From IMG/VR virus record IMGVR_UViG_2698536485_000016, positions 1 through 22,503 of that record: DNA of 22,503 bases; one strand, 5' to 3'. Below the pieces are notes generated by a model. It was given only the letters and a program-made list of their open reading frames with translations. It did no database searches and had not been told where the DNA came from. The translations under genes were made by a program, and so were the position numbers. This document shows positions 7,956 to 22,503 of this stretch, in pieces (the stretch's first letter is position 1; the number at the start of each line of letters is the position of its first letter). Source of the stretch: a virus. Its lineage: Duplodnaviria > Heunggongvirae > Uroviricota > Caudoviricetes.

Positions 7956-8840
7956 ATGGAAAACGAACTGATCATCGACGGTCAGGTTATTGACCTGTCT
8001 GAAACACAGGAAAATGCAGAAGAAACCATCATCCAAACAGAGTCACAGCCTGAGAATGAAAGCCAGGATGACAACGGTAAAGAGGTGGCAACTGAGCCTG
8101 AAAAAACCGAAGAGACACCAGAAGATTACGCCTTGCGTATTGGTGATGAAGAAATTCAGCTTAACGCTGACGATGATGATCACATTGACGGGCAACCTGC
8201 ACCGCAATGGGTGAAAGATCTTCGCAAAGGCTTCAAAGAAACACAGAAAGAAAACCGTGAGTTGCGCCGCCAGCTTGAGGAAGCATTAGCCAAGCCAGCG
8301 GAACATCAGCAACCACAACCAGACGCTATTCCACCAAAACCGACTCTTGAGTCGTGTGATTATGACGAACAGGCGTTTGAACAGGCATTGACTGATTGGC
8401 ATGAGAAAAAAGGCCGTGTCGAACAGCAGCAGCAACAAAAACTACGTCAGCAACAGGAATACCAACAGCGTTTCCAGCAAAGGGTAGAAGCGCATAAACA
8501 ACGGGCAGCCAAACTTCCTGTGAAAGATTATCAGGAAATGGAGGCCATTGTTCTTAGTGAGCTACCACCAATTCAGCAGGAAATCATCATTCACTGTGCA
8601 GACGAAGGCTCTGAACTACTCGCCTATGGCTTAGGTAAGAGCCAGCAATTACGCCAGCGTGTAGCCGCTGAGACAGATCCAATTCGCGCAGCATTCCTCT
8701 TGGGGCAGATTAGCAAACAGGTAAGCCTTGCTCCAAAACCAAAGAAAGCCATCAAGCCAGAGCCGGAAGTACGTGGTGGCGGTGCTGATGCGAAACAAGA
8801 CGAATTCAACAAATTATGCCCCGGCGCAAAAATCGAATAA
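7956..8840 (+). CDS. Scaffolding protein
   Basis: 294-aa highly charged, Glu/Gln-rich, helical-looking protein between portal and coat; SD aggag upstream. Confidence 0.75.
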   Translation: MENELIIDGQVIDLSETQENAEETIIQTESQPENESQDDNGKEVATEPEKTEETPEDYALRIGDEEIQLNADDDDHIDGQPAPQWVKDLRKGFKETQKENRELRRQLEEALAKPAEHQQPQPDAIPPKPTLESCDYDEQAFEQALTDWHEKKGRVEQQQQQKLRQQQEYQQRFQQRVEAHKQRAAKLPVKDYQEMEAIVLSELPPIQQEIIIHCADEGSELLAYGLGKSQQLRQRVAAETDPIRAAFLLGQISKQVSLAPKPKKAIKPEPEVRGGGADAKQDEFNKLCPGAKIE

Positions 8841-8851
8841 GGAAAAGATAA

Positions 8852-10123
8852 ATGCCTAACAATCTCGACAGTAACGTCAGTCAAATCGTTCTGAAAAAAT
8901 TCCTTCCGGGTTTTATGTCAGATTTAGTTCTGGCGAAAACCGTAGACCGTCAGTTGCTGGCAGGTGAAATCAACTCCAGCACTGGCGATAGCGTTAGCTT
9001 TAAACGTCCGCATCAATTCTCATCCCTCCGTACTCCCACTGGTGATATTTCAGGGCAAAATAAAAACAACCTGATCTCAGGTAAAGCTACGGGGCGTGTA
9101 GGTAACTACATCACTGTTGCTGTTGAATATCAGCAACTGGAGGAAGCGATCAAGCTTAACCAACTGGAAGAAATTCTCGCGCCGGTTCGCCAGCGAATCG
9201 TTACCGACCTTGAAACAGAGCTTGCTCACTTCATGATGAATAACGGTGCGTTGTCACTTGGTAGCCCCAATACTCCAATCACCAAATGGTCTGATGTTGC
9301 GCAGACGGCATCTTTCCTGAAAGACCTCGGCGTTAATGAAGGTGAAAACTATGCTGTAATGGATCCATGGTCTGCACAGCGACTTGCTGATGCGCAGACT
9401 GGTTTGCATGCTTCAGATCAATTGGTTCGTACTGCATGGGAGAACGCACAGATCCCAACCAATTTTGGCGGCATTCGCGCACTGATGTCTAATGGGCTTG
9501 CCTCTCGTACGCAGGGGGCATTTGGCGGAACACTGACAGTCAAAACACAGCCAACTGTTACCTATAACGCAGTTAAAGACTCATACCAGTTCACTGTAAC
9601 ATTGACCGGAGCGACAACCAGCGTTACAGGTTTCCTGAAAGCTGGTGATCAGGTTAAATTCACCAATACCTACTGGCTGCAACAGCAGACCAAACAGGCG
9701 TTGTATAACGGAGCCACACCAATTAGCTTCACTGCAACGGTTACTGCTGATGCTAATTCAGACAGCAGTGGCGATGTGACGGTTACGCTTTCTGGTGTTC
9801 CGATTTATGACACTACAAACCCGCAGTACAACTCTGTAAGTCGTCAGGTAGCGGCAGGTGATGCCGTATCTGTAGTAGGCACTGCTAGCCAGACAATGAA
9901 GCCAAACCTGTTCTATAACAAGTTCTTCTGTGGACTTGGCTCTATCCCACTGCCGAAACTGCACAGTATTGATTCTGCTGTTGCAACATATGAAGGTTTC
10001 TCCATCCGCGTACATAAATACGCAGATGGCGATGCCAACGTGCAAAAAATGCGCTTTGACTTACTGCCTGCATATGTGTGCTTTAACCCTCACATGGGCG
10101 GTCAGTTCTTCGGTAATCCGTAA
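8852..10123 (+). CDS. Major capsid (coat) protein, Sf6 gp5-like
   Basis: 423-aa ORF after the scaffold gene, good SD (aaggaaaagataaATG), followed by a strong intrinsic terminator as is typical for coat genes. Confidence 0.85.
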   Translation: MPNNLDSNVSQIVLKKFLPGFMSDLVLAKTVDRQLLAGEINSSTGDSVSFKRPHQFSSLRTPTGDISGQNKNNLISGKATGRVGNYITVAVEYQQLEEAIKLNQLEEILAPVRQRIVTDLETELAHFMMNNGALSLGSPNTPITKWSDVAQTASFLKDLGVNEGENYAVMDPWSAQRLADAQTGLHASDQLVRTAWENAQIPTNFGGIRALMSNGLASRTQGAFGGTLTVKTQPTVTYNAVKDSYQFTVTLTGATTSVTGFLKAGDQVKFTNTYWLQQQTKQALYNGATPISFTATVTADANSDSSGDVTVTLSGVPIYDTTNPQYNSVSRQVAAGDAVSVVGTASQTMKPNLFYNKFFCGLGSIPLPKLHSIDSAVATYEGFSIRVHKYADGDANVQKMRFDLLPAYVCFNPHMGGQFFGNP

Positions 10124-10127
10124 TAAC

Positions 10128-10155
10128 AAGGGGCTTACGCCCCTTTTATGTTTTA
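10128..10155 (+). terminator. Intrinsic terminator or attenuator after the coat gene
   Basis: Hairpin aaggggc-ttac-gcccctt (10128-10145) followed by TTATGTTTT. Confidence 0.6.
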
Positions 10156-10165
10156 AGGAAACAAT

Positions 10166-10351
10166 ATGGATCGCATGAGTGTATTCCTTGCCGCAGATAA
10201 CGAATCCGGGCATGTACAGGCCGTTATCGCAGAAAAAGACTTCCAGTTTTTCGAAAAGTTGGGCTTTGTTGCCTCAGTTGATGAATTGAAACCGACCAGT
10301 AAGCGAGGTCGTAAGGCGGCAGACAATGGCAACAGTACTGACAAAGGGTGA
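10166..10351 (+). CDS. Hypothetical small protein (61 aa)
   Basis: ORF with SD (aaggaaacaatATG) just after the coat terminator; its 3' end overlaps the start of the gp4-like gene by 26 nt; no recognised family. Confidence 0.4.
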   Translation: MDRMSVFLAADNESGHVQAVIAEKDFQFFEKLGFVASVDELKPTSKRGRKAADNGNSTDKG

Positions 10352-10808
10352 GATCGTCCTTTTTGCGCTTCGTAAGTTTGCTATTGCTTCTAATGCATCG
10401 CTGACTGATGTTGAGCCGCAATCAATTGAAGATGGTGTAAATGATCTGGAAGATATGATGTCCGAGTGGATGATTAACCCCGGCGAGATTGGTTACGCTT
10501 TCGCAACTGGAGATGAGCAGCCATTACCAGATGATGAGTCAGGTCTTCCAAGAAAATACAAACACGCAGTAGGCTATCAGTTATTGCTGAGAATGCTATC
10601 TGATTACAGCCTTGAGCCAACTCCGCAAGTTCTCAGTAACGCCCAACGCTCATATGATGCCTTGATGACCGACACTCTGGTTGTTCCTTCAATGCGACGA
10701 CGTGGAGATTTTCCTGTAGGGCAGGGTAATAAATATGACGTGTTCACATCTGACCGATATTATCCAGGCGATCTTCCTCTGATTGATGGCGATATCCCAA
10801 ACGCATAG
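10326..10808 (+). CDS. Head-to-tail adaptor / tail accessory factor (P22 gp4-like)
   Basis: 160 aa; N-terminal region (TKGEIVLFALRKFAIASNASLTDVEPQS) resembles P22 gp4 as I recall it; conserved position after coat. Confidence 0.8.
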   Translation: MATVLTKGEIVLFALRKFAIASNASLTDVEPQSIEDGVNDLEDMMSEWMINPGEIGYAFATGDEQPLPDDESGLPRKYKHAVGYQLLLRMLSDYSLEPTPQVLSNAQRSYDALMTDTLVVPSMRRRGDFPVGQGNKYDVFTSDRYYPGDLPLIDGDIPNA

Positions 10809-10816
10809 GTGAATAA

Positions 10817-12235
10817 ATGCCTATTCAGCAACTTCCGCTTATGAAAGGTGTCGGCAAAGACTTTAGAAACGCCGACTATATCGACTATCTGCCAGTGAAT
10901 ATGTTGGCTACACCCAAAGAAATCCTGAACAGCAGCGGATATCTTCGCTCATTCCCGGGCATTGCCAAACGTTCTGATGTGAACGGCGTATCGCGCGGAG
11001 TTGAGTACAACATGGCGCAGAGTGCTGTTTATCGCGTGTGTGGCGGCAAGCTGTACAAAGGAGAAAGTGAAGTCGGTGATGTTGCCGGAAGTGGTCGTGT
11101 ATCAATGGCGCATGGTCGGACATCTCAGGCTGTAGGCGTTAATGGCCAACTGGTCGAGTATCGTTATGATGGCACGGTTAAAACAGTCTCAAACTGGCCT
11201 ACAGACAGCGGATTCACGCAGTATGAGTTAGGTTCTGTTCGTGACATTACGCGCTTACGCGGGCGTTATGCGTGGTCAAAAGACGGCACTGATTCATGGT
11301 TTATCACTGACCTTGAAGACGAATCGCATCCTGACCGCTACAGCGCACAATATCGCGCAGAATCGCAGCCGGACGGTATCCTCGGCATCGGCACATGGCG
11401 AGACTTCATCGTCTGCTTTGGTTCATCGACGATTGAATATTTCTCCCTGACTGGTGCAACCACCGTTGGTGCAGCTTTGTATGTCGCACAGCCATCACTG
11501 ATGGTGCAAAAAGGCATCGCCGGGACTTACTGCAAAACGCCATTCGCTGATTCTTATGCGTTCATCAGCAATCCGGCAACTGGTGCGCCGTCTGTGTATA
11601 TCATCGGCTCCGGGCAGGTATCACCAATCGCCAGCGCGAGCATTGAGAAAATCCTCCGCTCCTACACTGCTGATGAACTGGCTGATGGCGTGATGGAATC
11701 GTTGCGGTTTGATGCTCATGAGTTGCTGATTATCCATCTTCCGCGCCATGTCCTCGTATACGACGCATCTTCAAGCGCCAATGGTCCGCAATGGTGTGTA
11801 CTGAAAACAGGTCTGTATGACGATGTGTACCGCGCTATCGACTTCATTTACGAAGGCAATCAGATAACGTGCGGCGATAAGCTGGAATCCGTGACCGGGA
11901 AATTGCAGTTCGACATCAGCAGCCAGTACGACAAGCAACAGGAACACCTGCTGTTTACTCCGTTGTTCAAAGCGGATAACGCCAGATGCTTCGATCTGGA
12001 GGTGGAATCATCCACTGGCGTAGCTCAGTACGCCGACCGCCTGTTCCTCTCTGCAACCACTGACGGCATAAATTACGGACGTGAGCAGATGATTGAACAG
12101 AATGAACCGTTCGTTTACGACAAACGCGTTTTGTGGAAGCGAGTAGGGCGCATCAGGAAAAATGTCGGCTTCAAATTGCGCGTTATCACGAAGTCACCTG
12201 TCACTCTGTCTGGCTGCCAGATAAGGATTGAGTAA
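10817..12235 (+). CDS. Tail hub / tail accessory factor (P22 gp10-like)
   Basis: 472-aa ORF, the same length as P22 gp10 by my recollection, in the conserved position between the gp4-like and needle genes. Confidence 0.8.
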
Positions 12236-17477: not shown

Positions 17478-17738
17478 TTATCTGCTGTCTTTTTTATATA
17501 GCTTCTTGAGCGTATCAAAGACAATTTTCTTAACCATATCAGATTGTTGTTCTGCCATACGCTCTGCATCGTCAATGTAAACTGATGCAGAGCTTTGTTT
17601 ATCCAATGATTCCTCAATCGCTGCAATTATCTCTGAGTTCAGCGACCTGTTATTCATCTTCGCACGCTGCTTAATTTTCGCGTGGAGTTCATGCGGAAGT
17701 CTCAAGTGAAACTGCGCCTCGTCGTATTTGCTGTACAT
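17478..17738 (-). CDS. mnt: Mnt-like repressor (ribbon-helix-helix, Arc/MetJ superfamily)
   Basis: Translation (FHLRLPHELHAKIKQRAKMNNRSLNSEII...DAERMAEQQSDMVKKIVFDTLKKLYKK) aligns along its length with P22 Mnt as I remember it. ATG at 17738 chosen (SD GGTGAGG upstream); an upstream ATG at 17771 is possible. Confidence 0.8.
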   Translation of the reverse strand: MYSKYDEAQFHLRLPHELHAKIKQRAKMNNRSLNSEIIAAIEESLDKQSSASVYIDDAERMAEQQSDMVKKIVFDTLKKLYKKDSR

Positions 17739-17869
17739 CCTTGATGCCTCACCAGTTGGGTGGAATGGCATCGTAACCTACTGGATAAATACTCAATAAT
17801 ACCATTTTGGTATGCAATCACATCATGGTTGCATCATATCATTCGTCTGGAGCAATGAAATGTCAGATA

Positions 17870-18370
17870 TCACCTACTCAACAGATGGTCAGCAACCATG
17901 TTTGCTGCCTTATAAGCTATAGCAGCTTCATCAATGGTGTTGAATCTCCCAAGGGTTATGTTTTTACCTGAGACATTTATCTGAGCTTGCCATTGATTTC
18001 TGGCTTGACAGAAAGTTACCCCCTTGATCCCAGCATTGCTATTTCGAGGTCCGACATTTAATGCATTTACGACTCTGCTGACATCCCTAAGGTTTGAGAT
18101 TGCGTTATTTCTTCTGTTTCTATCAATGTGGTCAATCTCTTGTTTGGGCCATTCGCCATATACATACAGCCAGGCAAGTCTATGTGCAAAATATCTTACG
18201 CCATCAATATTAATTGCGTTATATCCATAAGAAATTGTGCCAGCAACTTTCCCAACAGCACCTCTGGCGCTTAATTTCTTTTTCCAAGTGAAAATTCCTG
18301 TTTCTTTATTGTAATCGAGAACCTCCATAAGGCGCTCCCGAGTTACTACCTCGTGACGTCTCTTACTCAT
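17870..18370 (-). CDS. HNH endonuclease with C-terminal AP2-type DNA-binding domain (homing-endonuclease-like)
   Basis: HNH_3-like motif ([38 protein letters not shown]) followed by an AP2-like segment (GIKGVTF...WQAQI...[22 protein letters not shown]). ATG at 18370 with strong SD (GGAG, 6-nt spacer) chosen over the TTG start at 18412 in the ORF track. Confidence 0.85.
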
Positions 18371-18392
18371 TATTTTCTCCGGAATGTTTATT

Positions 18393-20060
18393 ATGCCAGA
18401 ACAATTATACAACGTTGTTGTTTCACAACCAAGTCAGTTATTTACTTTAGCTCGCTCGTTTAAAGCAAATGCCAATGGCAAAATTTATATCGGAAAAATT
18501 GACACTGATCCGGTAAATCCTGAAAACCAGATCCAGGTTTATGTGGAGAATGAAGACGGCTCTCACGTTCCTGTTTCGCAACCAATCATCATTAACGCTG
18601 CTGGTTACCCTGTATATAACGGACAGATTGCCAAGTTTGTAACCGTGCAAGGCCATTCTATGGCTGTTTATGATGCGTACGGCGCGCAGCAGTTTTATTT
18701 TCCGAATGTACTGAAGTACGACCCGGATCAGCTTGAGCAGCGTCTTGCATCATCAATAGGTTCTTCCATGGTTGGCATTACCGATGGAAGGACAGTGCAT
18801 GATTTTATATCTGTTGATGACTATCAGAGAATTGGTGATATCCGTGGTTACGGGGCGACAAATGAAAACGTAAACCCTGTCAACATTGCCGTTGCCACAG
18901 GTGAGGCCAATGGTCTACTGAAGGTGCCTAATGGAGTATGGAGCGGTAATTTTGAGTTAAAAAATAAAACTAGCATAACTGGTGAATCCATAACATCAAC
19001 AGTTGTTAACGTTCCTATAAACACGATCGGAATAAAGCCTGAGGGCTCTGACGTTAGAGGGATTACTATATCAAACATGAATCTCCAAGTTAACGGATCT
19101 GTTGCTGGCGGTCCTCCTGTTGGTAGCGGGGTCGGAATAGACATGTCTTTTTGCGGAAAGGCAGTTAACTGTGAGTTTAACAACCTTTATCTCGATTTCT
19201 TTGATATTGGTTACAACGCTGGATATGCTGATTTTTCAAATATTTATAACAATATGAGGTGCAATAACAACCGAATCGGGATTAACCTATCCAGTAACGG
19301 AACAATTATTCAAAACGTGTTCAATGGGTGTTATGTTGCAAACTGGACGGCTTATGCCGTGAAAGTTTCTGGCGCTAGCAACCAGATATTCAACGCGCTT
19401 AACATGGGGCATAACGGATCCGCCAATGCTTATTTCCTGCAGATAGATACGAACTCAAGAGGAATCATATTTAATCAACCTAACTTCGAAATGGACGTTG
19501 CAAACGGGAAAATTACAGCAGGAGGCCAGGCTATCGTGGTCGCCTCTAGTTCTGAGGTTACATTTAACTCCCCGACATTCAACAGGGTTAACGCTGCAGG
19601 GGCAAATGCCTACCTGTTCCGGGTTAGGGGTAACGCTGTAGTACGTATAAACGACCCTCAAATCTACAACGACGATGGCACAATAGGTCACCTAATTATC
19701 AGTGATGAAGCTGTTGTTTATCTCAATGATCCAAATCGAATATTCACAGTAATTACTATCCAAGGTAATGGGAGGCTAATACGTGTTGACGAGAAGATAT
19801 CAAACTCCCCTAACTATACAAACATTCTTACTTTAAAATCTGGAGACATAATTAACTTTGGATTCTATGCAAGATATGCAATGGCGGTTCCAGATTTTCA
19901 CTCCAATACTATGCCATCACCATTCAAGTACGCAGTGAACTTTGACACTTACCATAGCAGTGGAACTGCCATTGCTCGAGTGTATGATACAACTACAGGA
20001 AATGGAGTATCAAACATCAATGTTACATGTTTCGTACAGGCGTGGAGAGAGGATAGATAA
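18393..20060 (+). CDS. Tailspike protein: conserved P22-type head-binding N-domain plus divergent parallel beta-helix receptor-binding domain
   Basis: N-terminal ~115 aa ([53 protein letters not shown]...) match the P22/Sf6 tailspike particle-binding domain; the remainder is Asn/Gly/Val/Ile-rich repeats typical of a beta-helix. Start could be 18384 or 18393. Confidence 0.85.
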
Positions 20061-20090
20061 AAATAGGGCGGTCTCCCCGCCCTATTTTTA
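20061..20090. terminator. Bidirectional intrinsic terminator between the convergent tailspike and acyltransferase genes
   Basis: Perfect 9-bp stem atagggcgg / ccgccctat with a 5-nt loop, flanked by AAAA on the left and TTTTT on the right. Confidence 0.7.
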
Positions 20091-21155
20091 TACTGTAACT
20101 AAATTGTCTTCATTTCTATTGGTTTTTCTTTTTAATTTAAGAAAATGTATTTCAAAAAGATAGTATGACGCAGTTGATACTATATATGCGATAGCAAACC
20201 CACATGCTATTATCACAGCATTATTGTTTACTCCAAACAAGGAGGCCATTTTGTTTGCAATTGAAAAACACAGCAAATGCCACATATACAAACCATAACT
20301 TATCTTTCCTGTAAATGTTAATGGCTTTAATGATAATGCTTTTGTTATTATTTGTTTTTTCCCTAGCACACTCCACTTGTAAATGAAAAAAATTGCAGAT
20401 GAAAAAATCATCCCAAACGCTGTAAACATATACCAGCATTTCCCAGCCCAATCTACAGGGTTCCAAAAAGCATTAAGACCAACAGAATTTATTCCATTAA
20501 GAACCAGCCCAACACCTGCTATAAAAGTTAAAAATCCTGATTCATATGCGTACTTCTCATCTTTTATCTTTGAAAACAGAGCGCCAAGAACTAACATGTC
20601 AATGCAACTGATAAGAGTTACATTTACAATGTATGGGTTTCCATCAGTGATTTGAAATATAAAATATCTTGATATACTTGATGTTATTATTAGTATAATA
20701 AAAATCAGATTCATATTCTTTTTGTTTATGAAAAATATGAATAGAGGCCAAAGCCAGTAAAATTGTTCTTCCACTGCAAGAGACCAGGTGTGCCCCAAAA
20801 TTCCAGGTGTTGTAACATTTATTCCTATATAATAGTTTTGTAGATAAGTTATAAACCACAAATAACCATCCGTTGGTTTCCCAGTTGCAATTAGAAGAAT
20901 AAAGTTAACAAGTAGGTAAGCATAAAATAACGGGAATATTCTAAGCGATCTATTTATAAGAAATCGTTTAATATAGTTACTAAAACCAGAGTCTTTATCC
21001 TCGATAAGGATTGAGGTAATTAAGAAACCAGATAAGCAAAAGAACAGCGGAACTCCAGACCAACCAAGAGAAAATCCTGAAACTTTGGCATGAAAAAGCA
21101 TTACAATGAGCACCGCAATACCTCTCACACCATCTAAAGATTGTATATGTTTCAT
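20088..21155 (-). CDS. Integral-membrane acyltransferase family 3 protein (O-antigen acetylase-like, probable lysogenic conversion gene)
   Basis: 355-aa polytopic membrane protein; N-terminal motif LDGVRGIAVLIVMLFH and multiple hydrophobic segments typical of the family; AT-rich; located between tailspike and integrase as in serotype-converting phages. Confidence 0.85.
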   Translation of the reverse strand: MKHIQSLDGVRGIAVLIVMLFHAKVSGFSLGWSGVPLFFCLSGFLITSILIEDKDSGFSNYIKRFLINRSLRIFPLFYAYLLVNFILLIATGKPTDGYLWFITYLQNYYIGINVTTPGILGHTWSLAVEEQFYWLWPLFIFFINKKNMNLIFIILIITSSISRYFIFQITDGNPYIVNVTLISCIDMLVLGALFSKIKDEKYAYESGFLTFIAGVGLVLNGINSVGLNAFWNPVDWAGKCWYMFTAFGMIFSSAIFFIYKWSVLGKKQIITKALSLKPLTFTGKISYGLYMWHLLCFSIANKMASLFGVNNNAVIIACGFAIAYIVSTASYYLFEIHFLKLKRKTNRNEDNLVTV

Positions 21156-21345
21156 GCTAAAAATCCATATTCTACGGGAAGCGGGAGTCTATCAGATTTA
21201 GTTGATATTATCTATATAGACTAACTAGATGTTATCTAGCGATTGACTGTCATTCTATGTATATTTTCACGCCTGTTATCATATAACTTGATCATTTGGT
21301 ATTTTGAGAGATTAACTTCTTTTGTTTCCAGTGTGGCTATGCCAA

Positions 21346-22503
21346 TTACTCCACCTTTTCATCAAGCCAGTCCGCCCACCACTGCATCATTTCTCTGCGT
21401 TTATCGAGATACTGAGCATGGTTGTAAATTCCGCGCACAGATCCGCCGTTGGCATGTGCAAGTTGCACTTCAATAGCGTCAGCAGGCCATTCGTGCTCGT
21501 TCATAATCGTGCTGAATTCATGCCTGAATCCGTGACCGCTTTCCAGACCCTCATAGCCGATTTGTTTAATCACAAGCAATACCGCGTTCTCGCAGATTGG
21601 CTTCTTCTTATCGTTGCGCCCGGCAAAAACAAACTCTGATACTGGTTTAGTGATGGAGCTTAGCGTAGTGAGAAGTTCAACCACCTGGTCTGACATAGGA
21701 ACAACATGAATCTTGCGTCCCTTCATCACATTGGCGTCGATGGTGATAATCCTGTTTTCAAAATCGACGTTCTTCCATAGCATGGAACGAAGCTCTTTTG
21801 TTCTGAGGGCTGTGTAGCGTAAAACTTTGGTCGCAATGAGCGATACGATACTTCCTGAAAATGTTGCCAGTGCTTTGTTAAATGCCGGGATCTGGTCTGC
21901 AGGAAGAAACGGGAAGTTCTTCTTGCGGTATCCTTTCATGGCGTCTGCAAGGTCAGGTGCCGGGTTATATTTAGCCCTTCCGGTGACAATAGCGTAACGG
22001 AAAACCTCGCCGCATCTTCTGCGGGCTTTGTTGGCTCGCTCCATTGCACCGCGATCTTCAAATCTGCGGATTACTTCCAGCAGTTGCATCGGCTCAATAT
22101 CCTGAATTTCAAGGCCGCCGATGATAGGTAAAATGTCGTCATCAAACATTTTTGCAAGTTCATTTGCATAGCCTACTGACCAGACTTGCTTCTTGTGCTC
22201 GTACCATTCCTTGTAAATCGCACTAAAGGAATTGTTGTTAGACGAAGCCTTTTTCGCTTTTACCGGATCGATGCCAACCGAGATGTCTTTCCTCGCAGTC
22301 CATGCTTTATCCCTTGCCTCCTGCAAAGTCATAAGCGGGTATTTTCCGACGGTCAGGATTTTCTCCTTACCGTCAATCTTGTAGCGAAGCTGCCATACCT
22401 TTTTCCCGGATACAGGGACATAAAGGTACAGGCCATTACCATCGAGTAGGCGGTATGGTTTTTCTTTCGGCTTAGCTGCTTCAATCTGCTTAACGGTGAG
22501 CAT
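21346..22503 (-). CDS. int: Tyrosine integrase, P4-like (N-terminal DUF4102-type arm-binding domain)
   Basis: N-terminus MLTVKQIEAAKPKEKPYRLLDGNGLYLYV typical of the family; C-terminal catalytic motifs HGFRHEF and RGIYNHAQY. The start codon occupies 22501-22503, so the upstream region is outside the window. Confidence 0.9.
   Translation of the reverse strand: MLTVKQIEAAKPKEKPYRLLDGNGLYLYVPVSGKKVWQLRYKIDGKEKILTVGKYPLMTLQEARDKAWTARKDISVGIDPVKAKKASSNNNSFSAIYKEWYEHKKQVWSVGYANELAKMFDDDILPIIGGLEIQDIEPMQLLEVIRRFEDRGAMERANKARRRCGEVFRYAIVTGRAKYNPAPDLADAMKGYRKKNFPFLPADQIPAFNKALATFSGSIVSLIATKVLRYTALRTKELRSMLWKNVDFENRIITIDANVMKGRKIHVVPMSDQVVELLTTLSSITKPVSEFVFAGRNDKKKPICENAVLLVIKQIGYEGLESGHGFRHEFSTIMNEHEWPADAIEVQLAHANGGSVRGIYNHAQYLDKRREMMQWWADWLDEKVE

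Follow-up and report, generated by a model that had tools for sequence, protein, structure and literature searches.

The slot between the integrase and tailspike genes is occupied differently in the characterized relatives of the locus described here. In Sf6 (AF547987), the order is int (gene 16), a putative oac promoter, oac (gene 15), a terminator, and the tailspike gene (gene 14). In CUS-3, the same slot holds neuO, which encodes a phase-variable K1 capsule O-acetyltransferase that switches via AAGACTC heptanucleotide repeats. HK620 carries no conversion gene downstream of int, and in KplE1 (CPS-53) the genes downstream of int are of the gtrABS type. The gene order of P22 is int-attP-gtrABC. 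KplE1, HK620 and Kapi1 are characterized by a common argW integration module, in which attL, the intS promoter PintS and intS stand on one side, and torI/xis and attR on the other. PintS overlaps attL beside argW (PMC2951348). In Kapi1, Sf6, HK620 and KplE1, attP lies between int and xis, and these two genes end up at opposite ends of the prophage (PMC8787464).

The window, by which we mean the whole 22,503-nt stretch of DNA that was analyzed, was identified by megablast as the right arm of an Sf6/HK620-like Lederbergvirus prophage of E. coli. The following features are found at its int-proximal end:

18384 to 20060, plus strand: tailspike gene; the Pfam Head_binding domain covers residues 4-116 and is the head-binding domain common to Sf6 and HK620
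20059 to 20090, both strands: bidirectional intrinsic terminator between the convergent tailspike and acyltransferase genes, overlapping the acyltransferase stop codon
20088 to 21155, minus strand: gene of an Acyl_transf_3 membrane acyltransferase of 355 aa (Pfam PF01757, E = 5.7e-25)
21156 to 21345, minus strand: int-acyltransferase gap, 190 bp, 33.7% G+C
21346 to 22503, minus strand: gene of an IntS-type (argW-specific) tyrosine integrase (Pfam Arm-DNA-bind_3, Phage_int_M and Phage_integrase); the window ends at its ATG

This layout resembles that of Sf6 in its components (a tailspike gene, a convergent terminator, an Acyl_transf_3-type O-antigen acylase gene, an intergenic gap measuring 150-190 bp, and int of the IntS type, all in the same orientation), in the position of the attP core approximately 160 bp upstream of int, and in int itself, which is 96.7% identical at the nucleotide level. 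Unlike these shared parts, the gap, the acyltransferase gene and the receptor-binding part of the tailspike gene have no detectable nucleotide similarity to Sf6; the Sf6 gap is, by eye, higher in G+C and lacks the palindromes of the window. As in CUS-3, a surface-polysaccharide acyltransferase gene fills the slot from the IntS-type int to the tailspike gene; however, the enzyme family and the sequence differ from those of neuO, and no tandem repeats comparable to the neuO heptanucleotides are present in 20000-21500. Where HK620 has no conversion gene and KplE1 has gtrABS-type genes, the window has a single acyltransferase gene. The prophage shares with the KplE1/HK620/Kapi1 argW module the integrase family, the 16-bp argW core and a nearly identical P' arm, whereas this module lies wholly outside the gap, and its core and arms lie outside the window.

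Genes and homology limits of the locus

The int stop codon (TAA, minus strand) occupies 21348-21346 and the acyltransferase ATG occupies 21155-21153, so the gap extends exactly from 21156 to 21345, as a first-pass annotation of this DNA had stated. The int gene is 96-97% identical at the nucleotide level to the int genes of HK620, Sf6, CUS-3, HK633, IME10 and Kapi1. Homology ends 0-8 nt from the int stop codon for these phages and 0-12 nt from it for IntS phages and prophages taken together, the approximately 12 gap nucleotides next to this codon being shared with a few intS prophages in E. coli genomes. On the other side, homology to HK620 and other phages ends at about position 18731 in the tailspike gene, in which Pfam recognizes the head-binding domain only, the remainder being unique and part of the variable cassette. 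The interval 18732-21345, comprising the receptor-binding part of the tailspike gene, the acyltransferase gene and the gap, forms one variable cassette with no nucleotide match in the phage and E. coli genomes searched. In particular, BLAST searches in near and distant modes gave no match for 20061-21345 in 50,697 phage records. For the acyltransferase gene and the rest of the gap, near mode gave no match in 5,426 complete E. coli genomes, where only the int 3' end and about 12 gap bases were found; the gap alone had no match in the complete E. coli genomes in distant mode at E<=10. The G+C content of the acyltransferase gene (32.2%) and of the gap (33.7%) contrasts with that of int (47.4%) and of the window as a whole (47.3%).

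Although the cassette is unmatched at the nucleotide level, an exact-sequence look-up of the acyltransferase retrieved 13 assembly contigs encoding exactly this protein. The next relatives have 73%, 71% and then at most 59% protein identity. The start codon of the gene is kept in the homologues; TGGA, 9-11 nt ahead of this ATG, matches the Shine-Dalgarno sequence weakly. We annotate it as a putative O-antigen-modifying lysogenic conversion gene, the O-antigen being its presumed substrate. Upstream of the 54-73% identical homologues on contigs L092, L093/L094 and L009-L011, the DNA is unrelated to the gap and reveals no shared promoter architecture. A common element of about 100 nt with the hairpin GGTCGG-AATC-CCGAC was observed at 1085-1200 of L092, at approximately 2770-2870 of L093 and at the equivalent position of L094. 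It precedes the 73% and 56% identical homologues, although lysis-like genes come before one of them and an integrase gene before the other, and the window is devoid of it.

The 3' end of int was also observed apart from the gene. Its last 55-87 bp (21345-21431) stand alone in Gally, ev099, mEp332 and PhiR70_1, which lack the rest of this int, and the same piece is found under non-integrase annotations in some E. coli genomes. These isolated pieces are probably remnants of module exchange or deletion.

Position of attP and integrated copies of the element

The locus was compared in contigs that carry the element together with its chromosomal surroundings. In contigs L004-L007, the host genes fadJ-fadI-yfcZ-fadL-yfdF-mlaA-yfdC (names assigned by Pfam content and order) are located upstream of a tRNA-Arg(CCT) gene (8417-8491), followed by int (8653-9810), the 190-bp gap and the acyltransferase gene (10001-11068). 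In all six integrated copies (L004-L007, L089 and L095), int, the gap and the acyltransferase gene are contiguous and argW lies on the far side of int; host genes upstream are seen in five of the six. The prophage-bearing contigs examined sit at the E. coli-type argW locus. The gap is 100% identical to that of the window in L004-L008 and in the IMG/VR contigs L089 and L091, and it has a single substitution in the IMG/VR contig L090. The metagenome contig L095 has the same arrangement adjoining argW, and the core palindrome region of its gap matches too. Every available copy of the gap is at least 99.5% identical, so conservation cannot show which of its bases matter.

The first-pass annotation had suggested that attP lies upstream of int, beyond the end of the window, and that a tRNA gene should be sought there. 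Both suggestions are borne out by the integrated copies, in which a tRNA-Arg gene upstream of int carries the core. The 16-bp core CTGCAGGGGACACCAT is the 3' end of argW, encoding tRNA-Arg(CCU), and occupies the positions 161-176 nt upstream of the int ATG. It was found at the argW 3' end in each of L004-L007, L089 and L095, and the same 16-mer is the annotated attP core in HK620 (L001, 1368-1383) and Sf6 (L002, 4312-4327). In HK620, Sf6 and CUS-3, the core annotated as attP or attL is placed at a distance of 160-176 bp upstream of int. From the core to int, the DNA agrees at nearly every base with the P' arm of HK620 and CUS-3, the GGGTAAAA arm-type repeats included; repeats of this type can be seen on the upstream side of int in HK620, CUS-3 and L004. 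Given the position of the core and the unsplit gap, attP is outside the gap and upstream of int. It lies between int and xis, with the crossover at approximately 22664-22679 on the extended window, and the gap takes no part in site-specific recombination.

A location of attP within the gap, after the lambda or P22 layout and with the palindromes as core or arm sites, has in our estimate practically no chance of being correct. In its favor, the gap shares the A+T richness frequent in attP arms, and the P22 gene order resembles the succession of int, gap and O-antigen-modification gene observed here. As in the gtrABC regions of P22 and SfV, the upstream region of a prophage O-antigen-modification gene lies beside int and att. 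In P22, however, attP separates int from gtr, whereas here it is not between int and the acyltransferase gene. The prophage junctions refute this location, the gap being unbroken in six integrated copies that have argW across int. Moreover, a search allowing up to 3 mismatches did not find the argW core CTGCAGGGGACACCAT anywhere in the window, the gap included. The gap contains no match to GGGTAAAA arm-type sites, of the type annotated in HK620, at up to 1 mismatch and no IHF consensus WATCAANNNNTTR, and at E<=10 it resembles none of the E. coli chromosomes. In the closest characterized relatives attP is upstream of int, according both to the annotations of HK620, Sf6 and CUS-3 and to the published account (PMC8787464). 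The absence of tRNA-like sequence from the gap, likewise stated in the first-pass annotation, agrees with the results of ARAGORN, which found 0 tRNA or tmRNA genes in the whole window, and of Rfam, which gave no match in 20900-21600 at E<=10; its statement that no tRNA-derived attP core is visible in the gap stands as well.

The window and the IMG/VR contigs L090 and L091 all terminate exactly at the int ATG (position 22503 of the window and position 1 of the contigs); in L090 and L091, the acyltransferase match begins at 1349, that is, 1158 + 190 + 1. Because this end is shared, it points to a prophage boundary cut at the gene edge. Prophage predictions ending at the int ATG omit approximately 176 bp containing PintS, the P' arm and the att core. 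The prophage boundary is now fixed, with attL at argW, about 160 nt past the window end.

Promoter candidates and palindromes in the gap

A search of the gap for promoters and repeats revealed the following features:

21252 to 21279, minus strand: promoter candidate P1, ATAACA-16-TAGAAT, 9 of 12 consensus positions; its -10 box ends 97 nt upstream of the acyltransferase ATG; a consensus match only
21207 to 21235, minus strand: promoter candidate P2, ATAACA-17-GATAAT, 9 of 12 consensus positions; its -10 box ends 52 nt upstream of the ATG; a consensus match only
21211 to 21220, no strand: perfect 10-bp palindrome tctatataga, in the P2 spacer and abutting the P2 -10 box
21225 to 21239, no strand: inverted repeat ctagat-gtt-atctag, which contains TAGA-N5-TCTA and encloses the P2 -35 box
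21194 to 21214 and 21218 to 21238, no strand: imperfect direct repeat of 2 x 21 nt with 24-bp spacing, 76% identical, containing both palindromes

Direct reading showed the sequences and coordinates of the two palindromes to be exactly those given in the first-pass annotation. To assess their chance occurrence, the gap was shuffled 5000 times with its dinucleotide composition preserved. Perfect palindromes of 10 bp or more appeared in 25% of the shuffles (P = 0.25), inverted repeats whose arms measure 6 bp or more and whose loop does not exceed 10 in 44% (P = 0.44), and both together in 14%. Thus, both palindromes are real but not above chance for the composition of the gap. The 21-nt direct repeat, a short family of two copies, may likewise be due to chance. 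Two sigma-70-like sites are present in the gap, both on the sense strand, compared with 0.8 +/- 0.8 in gap shuffles, an excess of about 1.5 sd; across 20000-21500, 6 such sites were observed and 5.7 expected.

Both palindromes overlap P2, the inverted repeat being placed around the -35 box and tctatataga filling the spacer up to the -10 box. The first-pass annotation had proposed that the palindromes may be promoter or regulator sites of the acyltransferase gene. The overlap with a sigma-70-like site speaks for this proposal, whereas neither the palindromes nor the promoter matches rise convincingly above chance; we infer from the overlap that such a role is plausible. Most simply, the palindromes are incidental features of A+T-rich promoter DNA.

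A more specific version of this idea is that the palindromes form an operator, with a regulator binding TAGA-N5-TCTA (21226-21238) and/or tctatataga over the P2 -35 box and spacer. The candidate binders are the Mnt/Arc-like ribbon-helix-helix (RHH) protein of the phage, encoded at 17478-17771, or a host factor. Apart from the overlap of both palindromes with P2, this reading draws on the encoded Arc/Mnt-family protein, whose beta-strand reads QFHLR. This predicted DNA-reading strand is intermediate between those of Arc (QFNLR) and Mnt (HFNFR), and TAGA-N5-TCTA has the geometry of the P22 Arc operator (ATGATAGAAGCACTCTACTAT). At that spacing, the gap contains the inverted TAGA boxes TAGATGTTATCTA (21226-21238). 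The TAGA box and its contacts with Gln9, Asn11 and Arg13 have been described (PMC12645479).

Several observations make an operator of this kind quite unlikely. The palindromes are at chance level for the gap composition, and the TAGA-N5-TCTA motif was chosen after the sequence had been seen; it occurs once in the window compared with 0.17 expected, and 16% of whole-window shuffles contain it. No second copy was found near the mnt-like gene or in the immI region of the related prophage L008. Among repressors of this family, the window encodes only an Mnt-like protein, and no matching operator lies near its gene. In addition, the Arc-like protein of L008 has a different recognition strand, and prophages with differing immI gene sets carry an identical gap. 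It is highly doubtful that TAGA-N5-TCTA and the 10-bp palindrome together constitute a real operator over the acyltransferase promoter, bound by an Arc/Mnt-type or another phage or host regulator. If they did, acylation of the O-antigen would not be constitutive but would be switched according to prophage state.

Some other features were observed around the mnt-like gene. This gene (17478-17771, minus strand) has no adjacent arc or ant, whereas L008 has both arc and ant at this place, and an inverted repeat ATGCAA..TTGCAT is located upstream of it. An ORF with HNH_3 and AP2 domains (17870-18412, minus strand) overlaps the start region of the tailspike gene (18384). It is present in L004, L006, L007 and L008, and is missing from the otherwise similar L005. 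The ORF looks like a free-standing homing endonuclease gene inserted between the mnt-like gene and the tailspike gene.

The acyltransferase cassette and its upstream region

The locus has several features characteristic of morons. The base composition of the gap and the acyltransferase gene is distinct, their G+C content being low relative to int and the window. The gene at this slot is swapped among relatives, Sf6 having oac and CUS-3 having neuO, and HK620 lacks a conversion gene there. A terminator is present downstream of the gene, at 20059-20090. The latter has the sequence aaaatagggcgg-tctc-ccgccctatttt with flanking A and T runs, and its predicted folding energies on the two strands are -24 and -25.2 kcal/mol (z = -7.3 and -7.8); 0 of 200 shuffles were as stable. 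A consensus scan missed this terminator; the probable cause is that its A and T runs are paired within the stem.

The low G+C content of the gap and the acyltransferase gene, the Sf6-like layout and the terminator argue for a moron cassette in which the gap serves as promoter and leader. Accordingly, we consider it likely that the gap provides the promoter and 5' leader for a moron O-antigen acyltransferase cassette gained by horizontal transfer. The predicted cassette between int and the tailspike gene would consist of the promoter region, the Acyl_transf_3 gene and the bidirectional terminator. A sigma-70 promoter in the gap, either P1 or P2, would allow the acyltransferase gene to be transcribed in the lysogen independently of the early and late operons of the phage. 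Read-through from the autoregulated PintS may add to this transcription, since there is no terminator after int. The enzyme would then acylate the O-antigen recognized by the tailspike of its own cassette. The promoter activity, the expression in the lysogen and the contribution of int read-through are inferences.

The same observations can be read without a promoter in the gap, as a functionless spacer left over from the recombination that brought in the cassette; transcription of the acyltransferase gene would then depend entirely on read-through from int or on a promoter in the int 3' end. The weak promoter matches and the lack of a terminator between int and the acyltransferase gene are consistent with such a spacer. 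We nevertheless regard it as unlikely. PintS is tightly autorepressed in this integrase family (PMC2951348) and would be a poor sole source of transcripts for a conversion gene, and the analogous Sf6 gap is annotated with a putative oac promoter. Furthermore, the acyltransferase gene has its own terminator and the G+C content is uniformly low through the gap, as if the gene had come together with its upstream region.

It is very improbable that the gap is mainly a 3' regulatory region of int, carrying a terminator or a sib-like site of RNase III retroregulation. HK620 is annotated with an excision-transcript terminator just downstream of int, in the window a small hairpin, TGGC-ata-GCCA, comes after the int stop codon, and the first 12 or so nucleotides past this codon are common to a few other intS prophages. 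Nevertheless, scans of the gap revealed no terminator-like site, and the hairpin has little stability (-4.2 kcal/mol, z = -0.64). Folded as a whole, the gap does not surpass its shuffles (z = -0.36), there is no Rfam match, and the composition of the gap follows the acyltransferase gene and not int.

Other kinds of control over the acyltransferase gene were considered and set aside. A structured RNA or riboswitch in the gap is unsupported by the Rfam result for 20900-21600 (no match at E<=10) and the fold score of z = -0.36. The gtr switch reportedly needs two GATC pairs within OxyR half-sites upstream of the operon, as Broadbent et al. are said to have described in 2010. Unlike such a gtr-type region, the gap of the window has a single GATC (21290-21293), and phase variation of the Dam/OxyR type is not supported. 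Repeat-mediated phase variation is not supported either: Tandem Repeats Finder applied to 20000-21500 revealed only a two-copy 15-bp array (20314-20342) deep inside the gene. The gap itself contains no tandem repeats and no RfaH ops/JUMPstart element.

The preferred reading, that of a promoter and leader belonging to an acquired acyltransferase cassette, makes the gap an ordinary regulatory spacer, and the cassette, a new allele, belongs to a kind of lysogenic-conversion cassette that is well known. The regulatory region itself is nothing unusual. The cassette combining a serotype-specific tailspike with an acyltransferase is rare in Sf6-like E. coli prophages, and it may be of interest for O-antigen seroconversion and phage host range.
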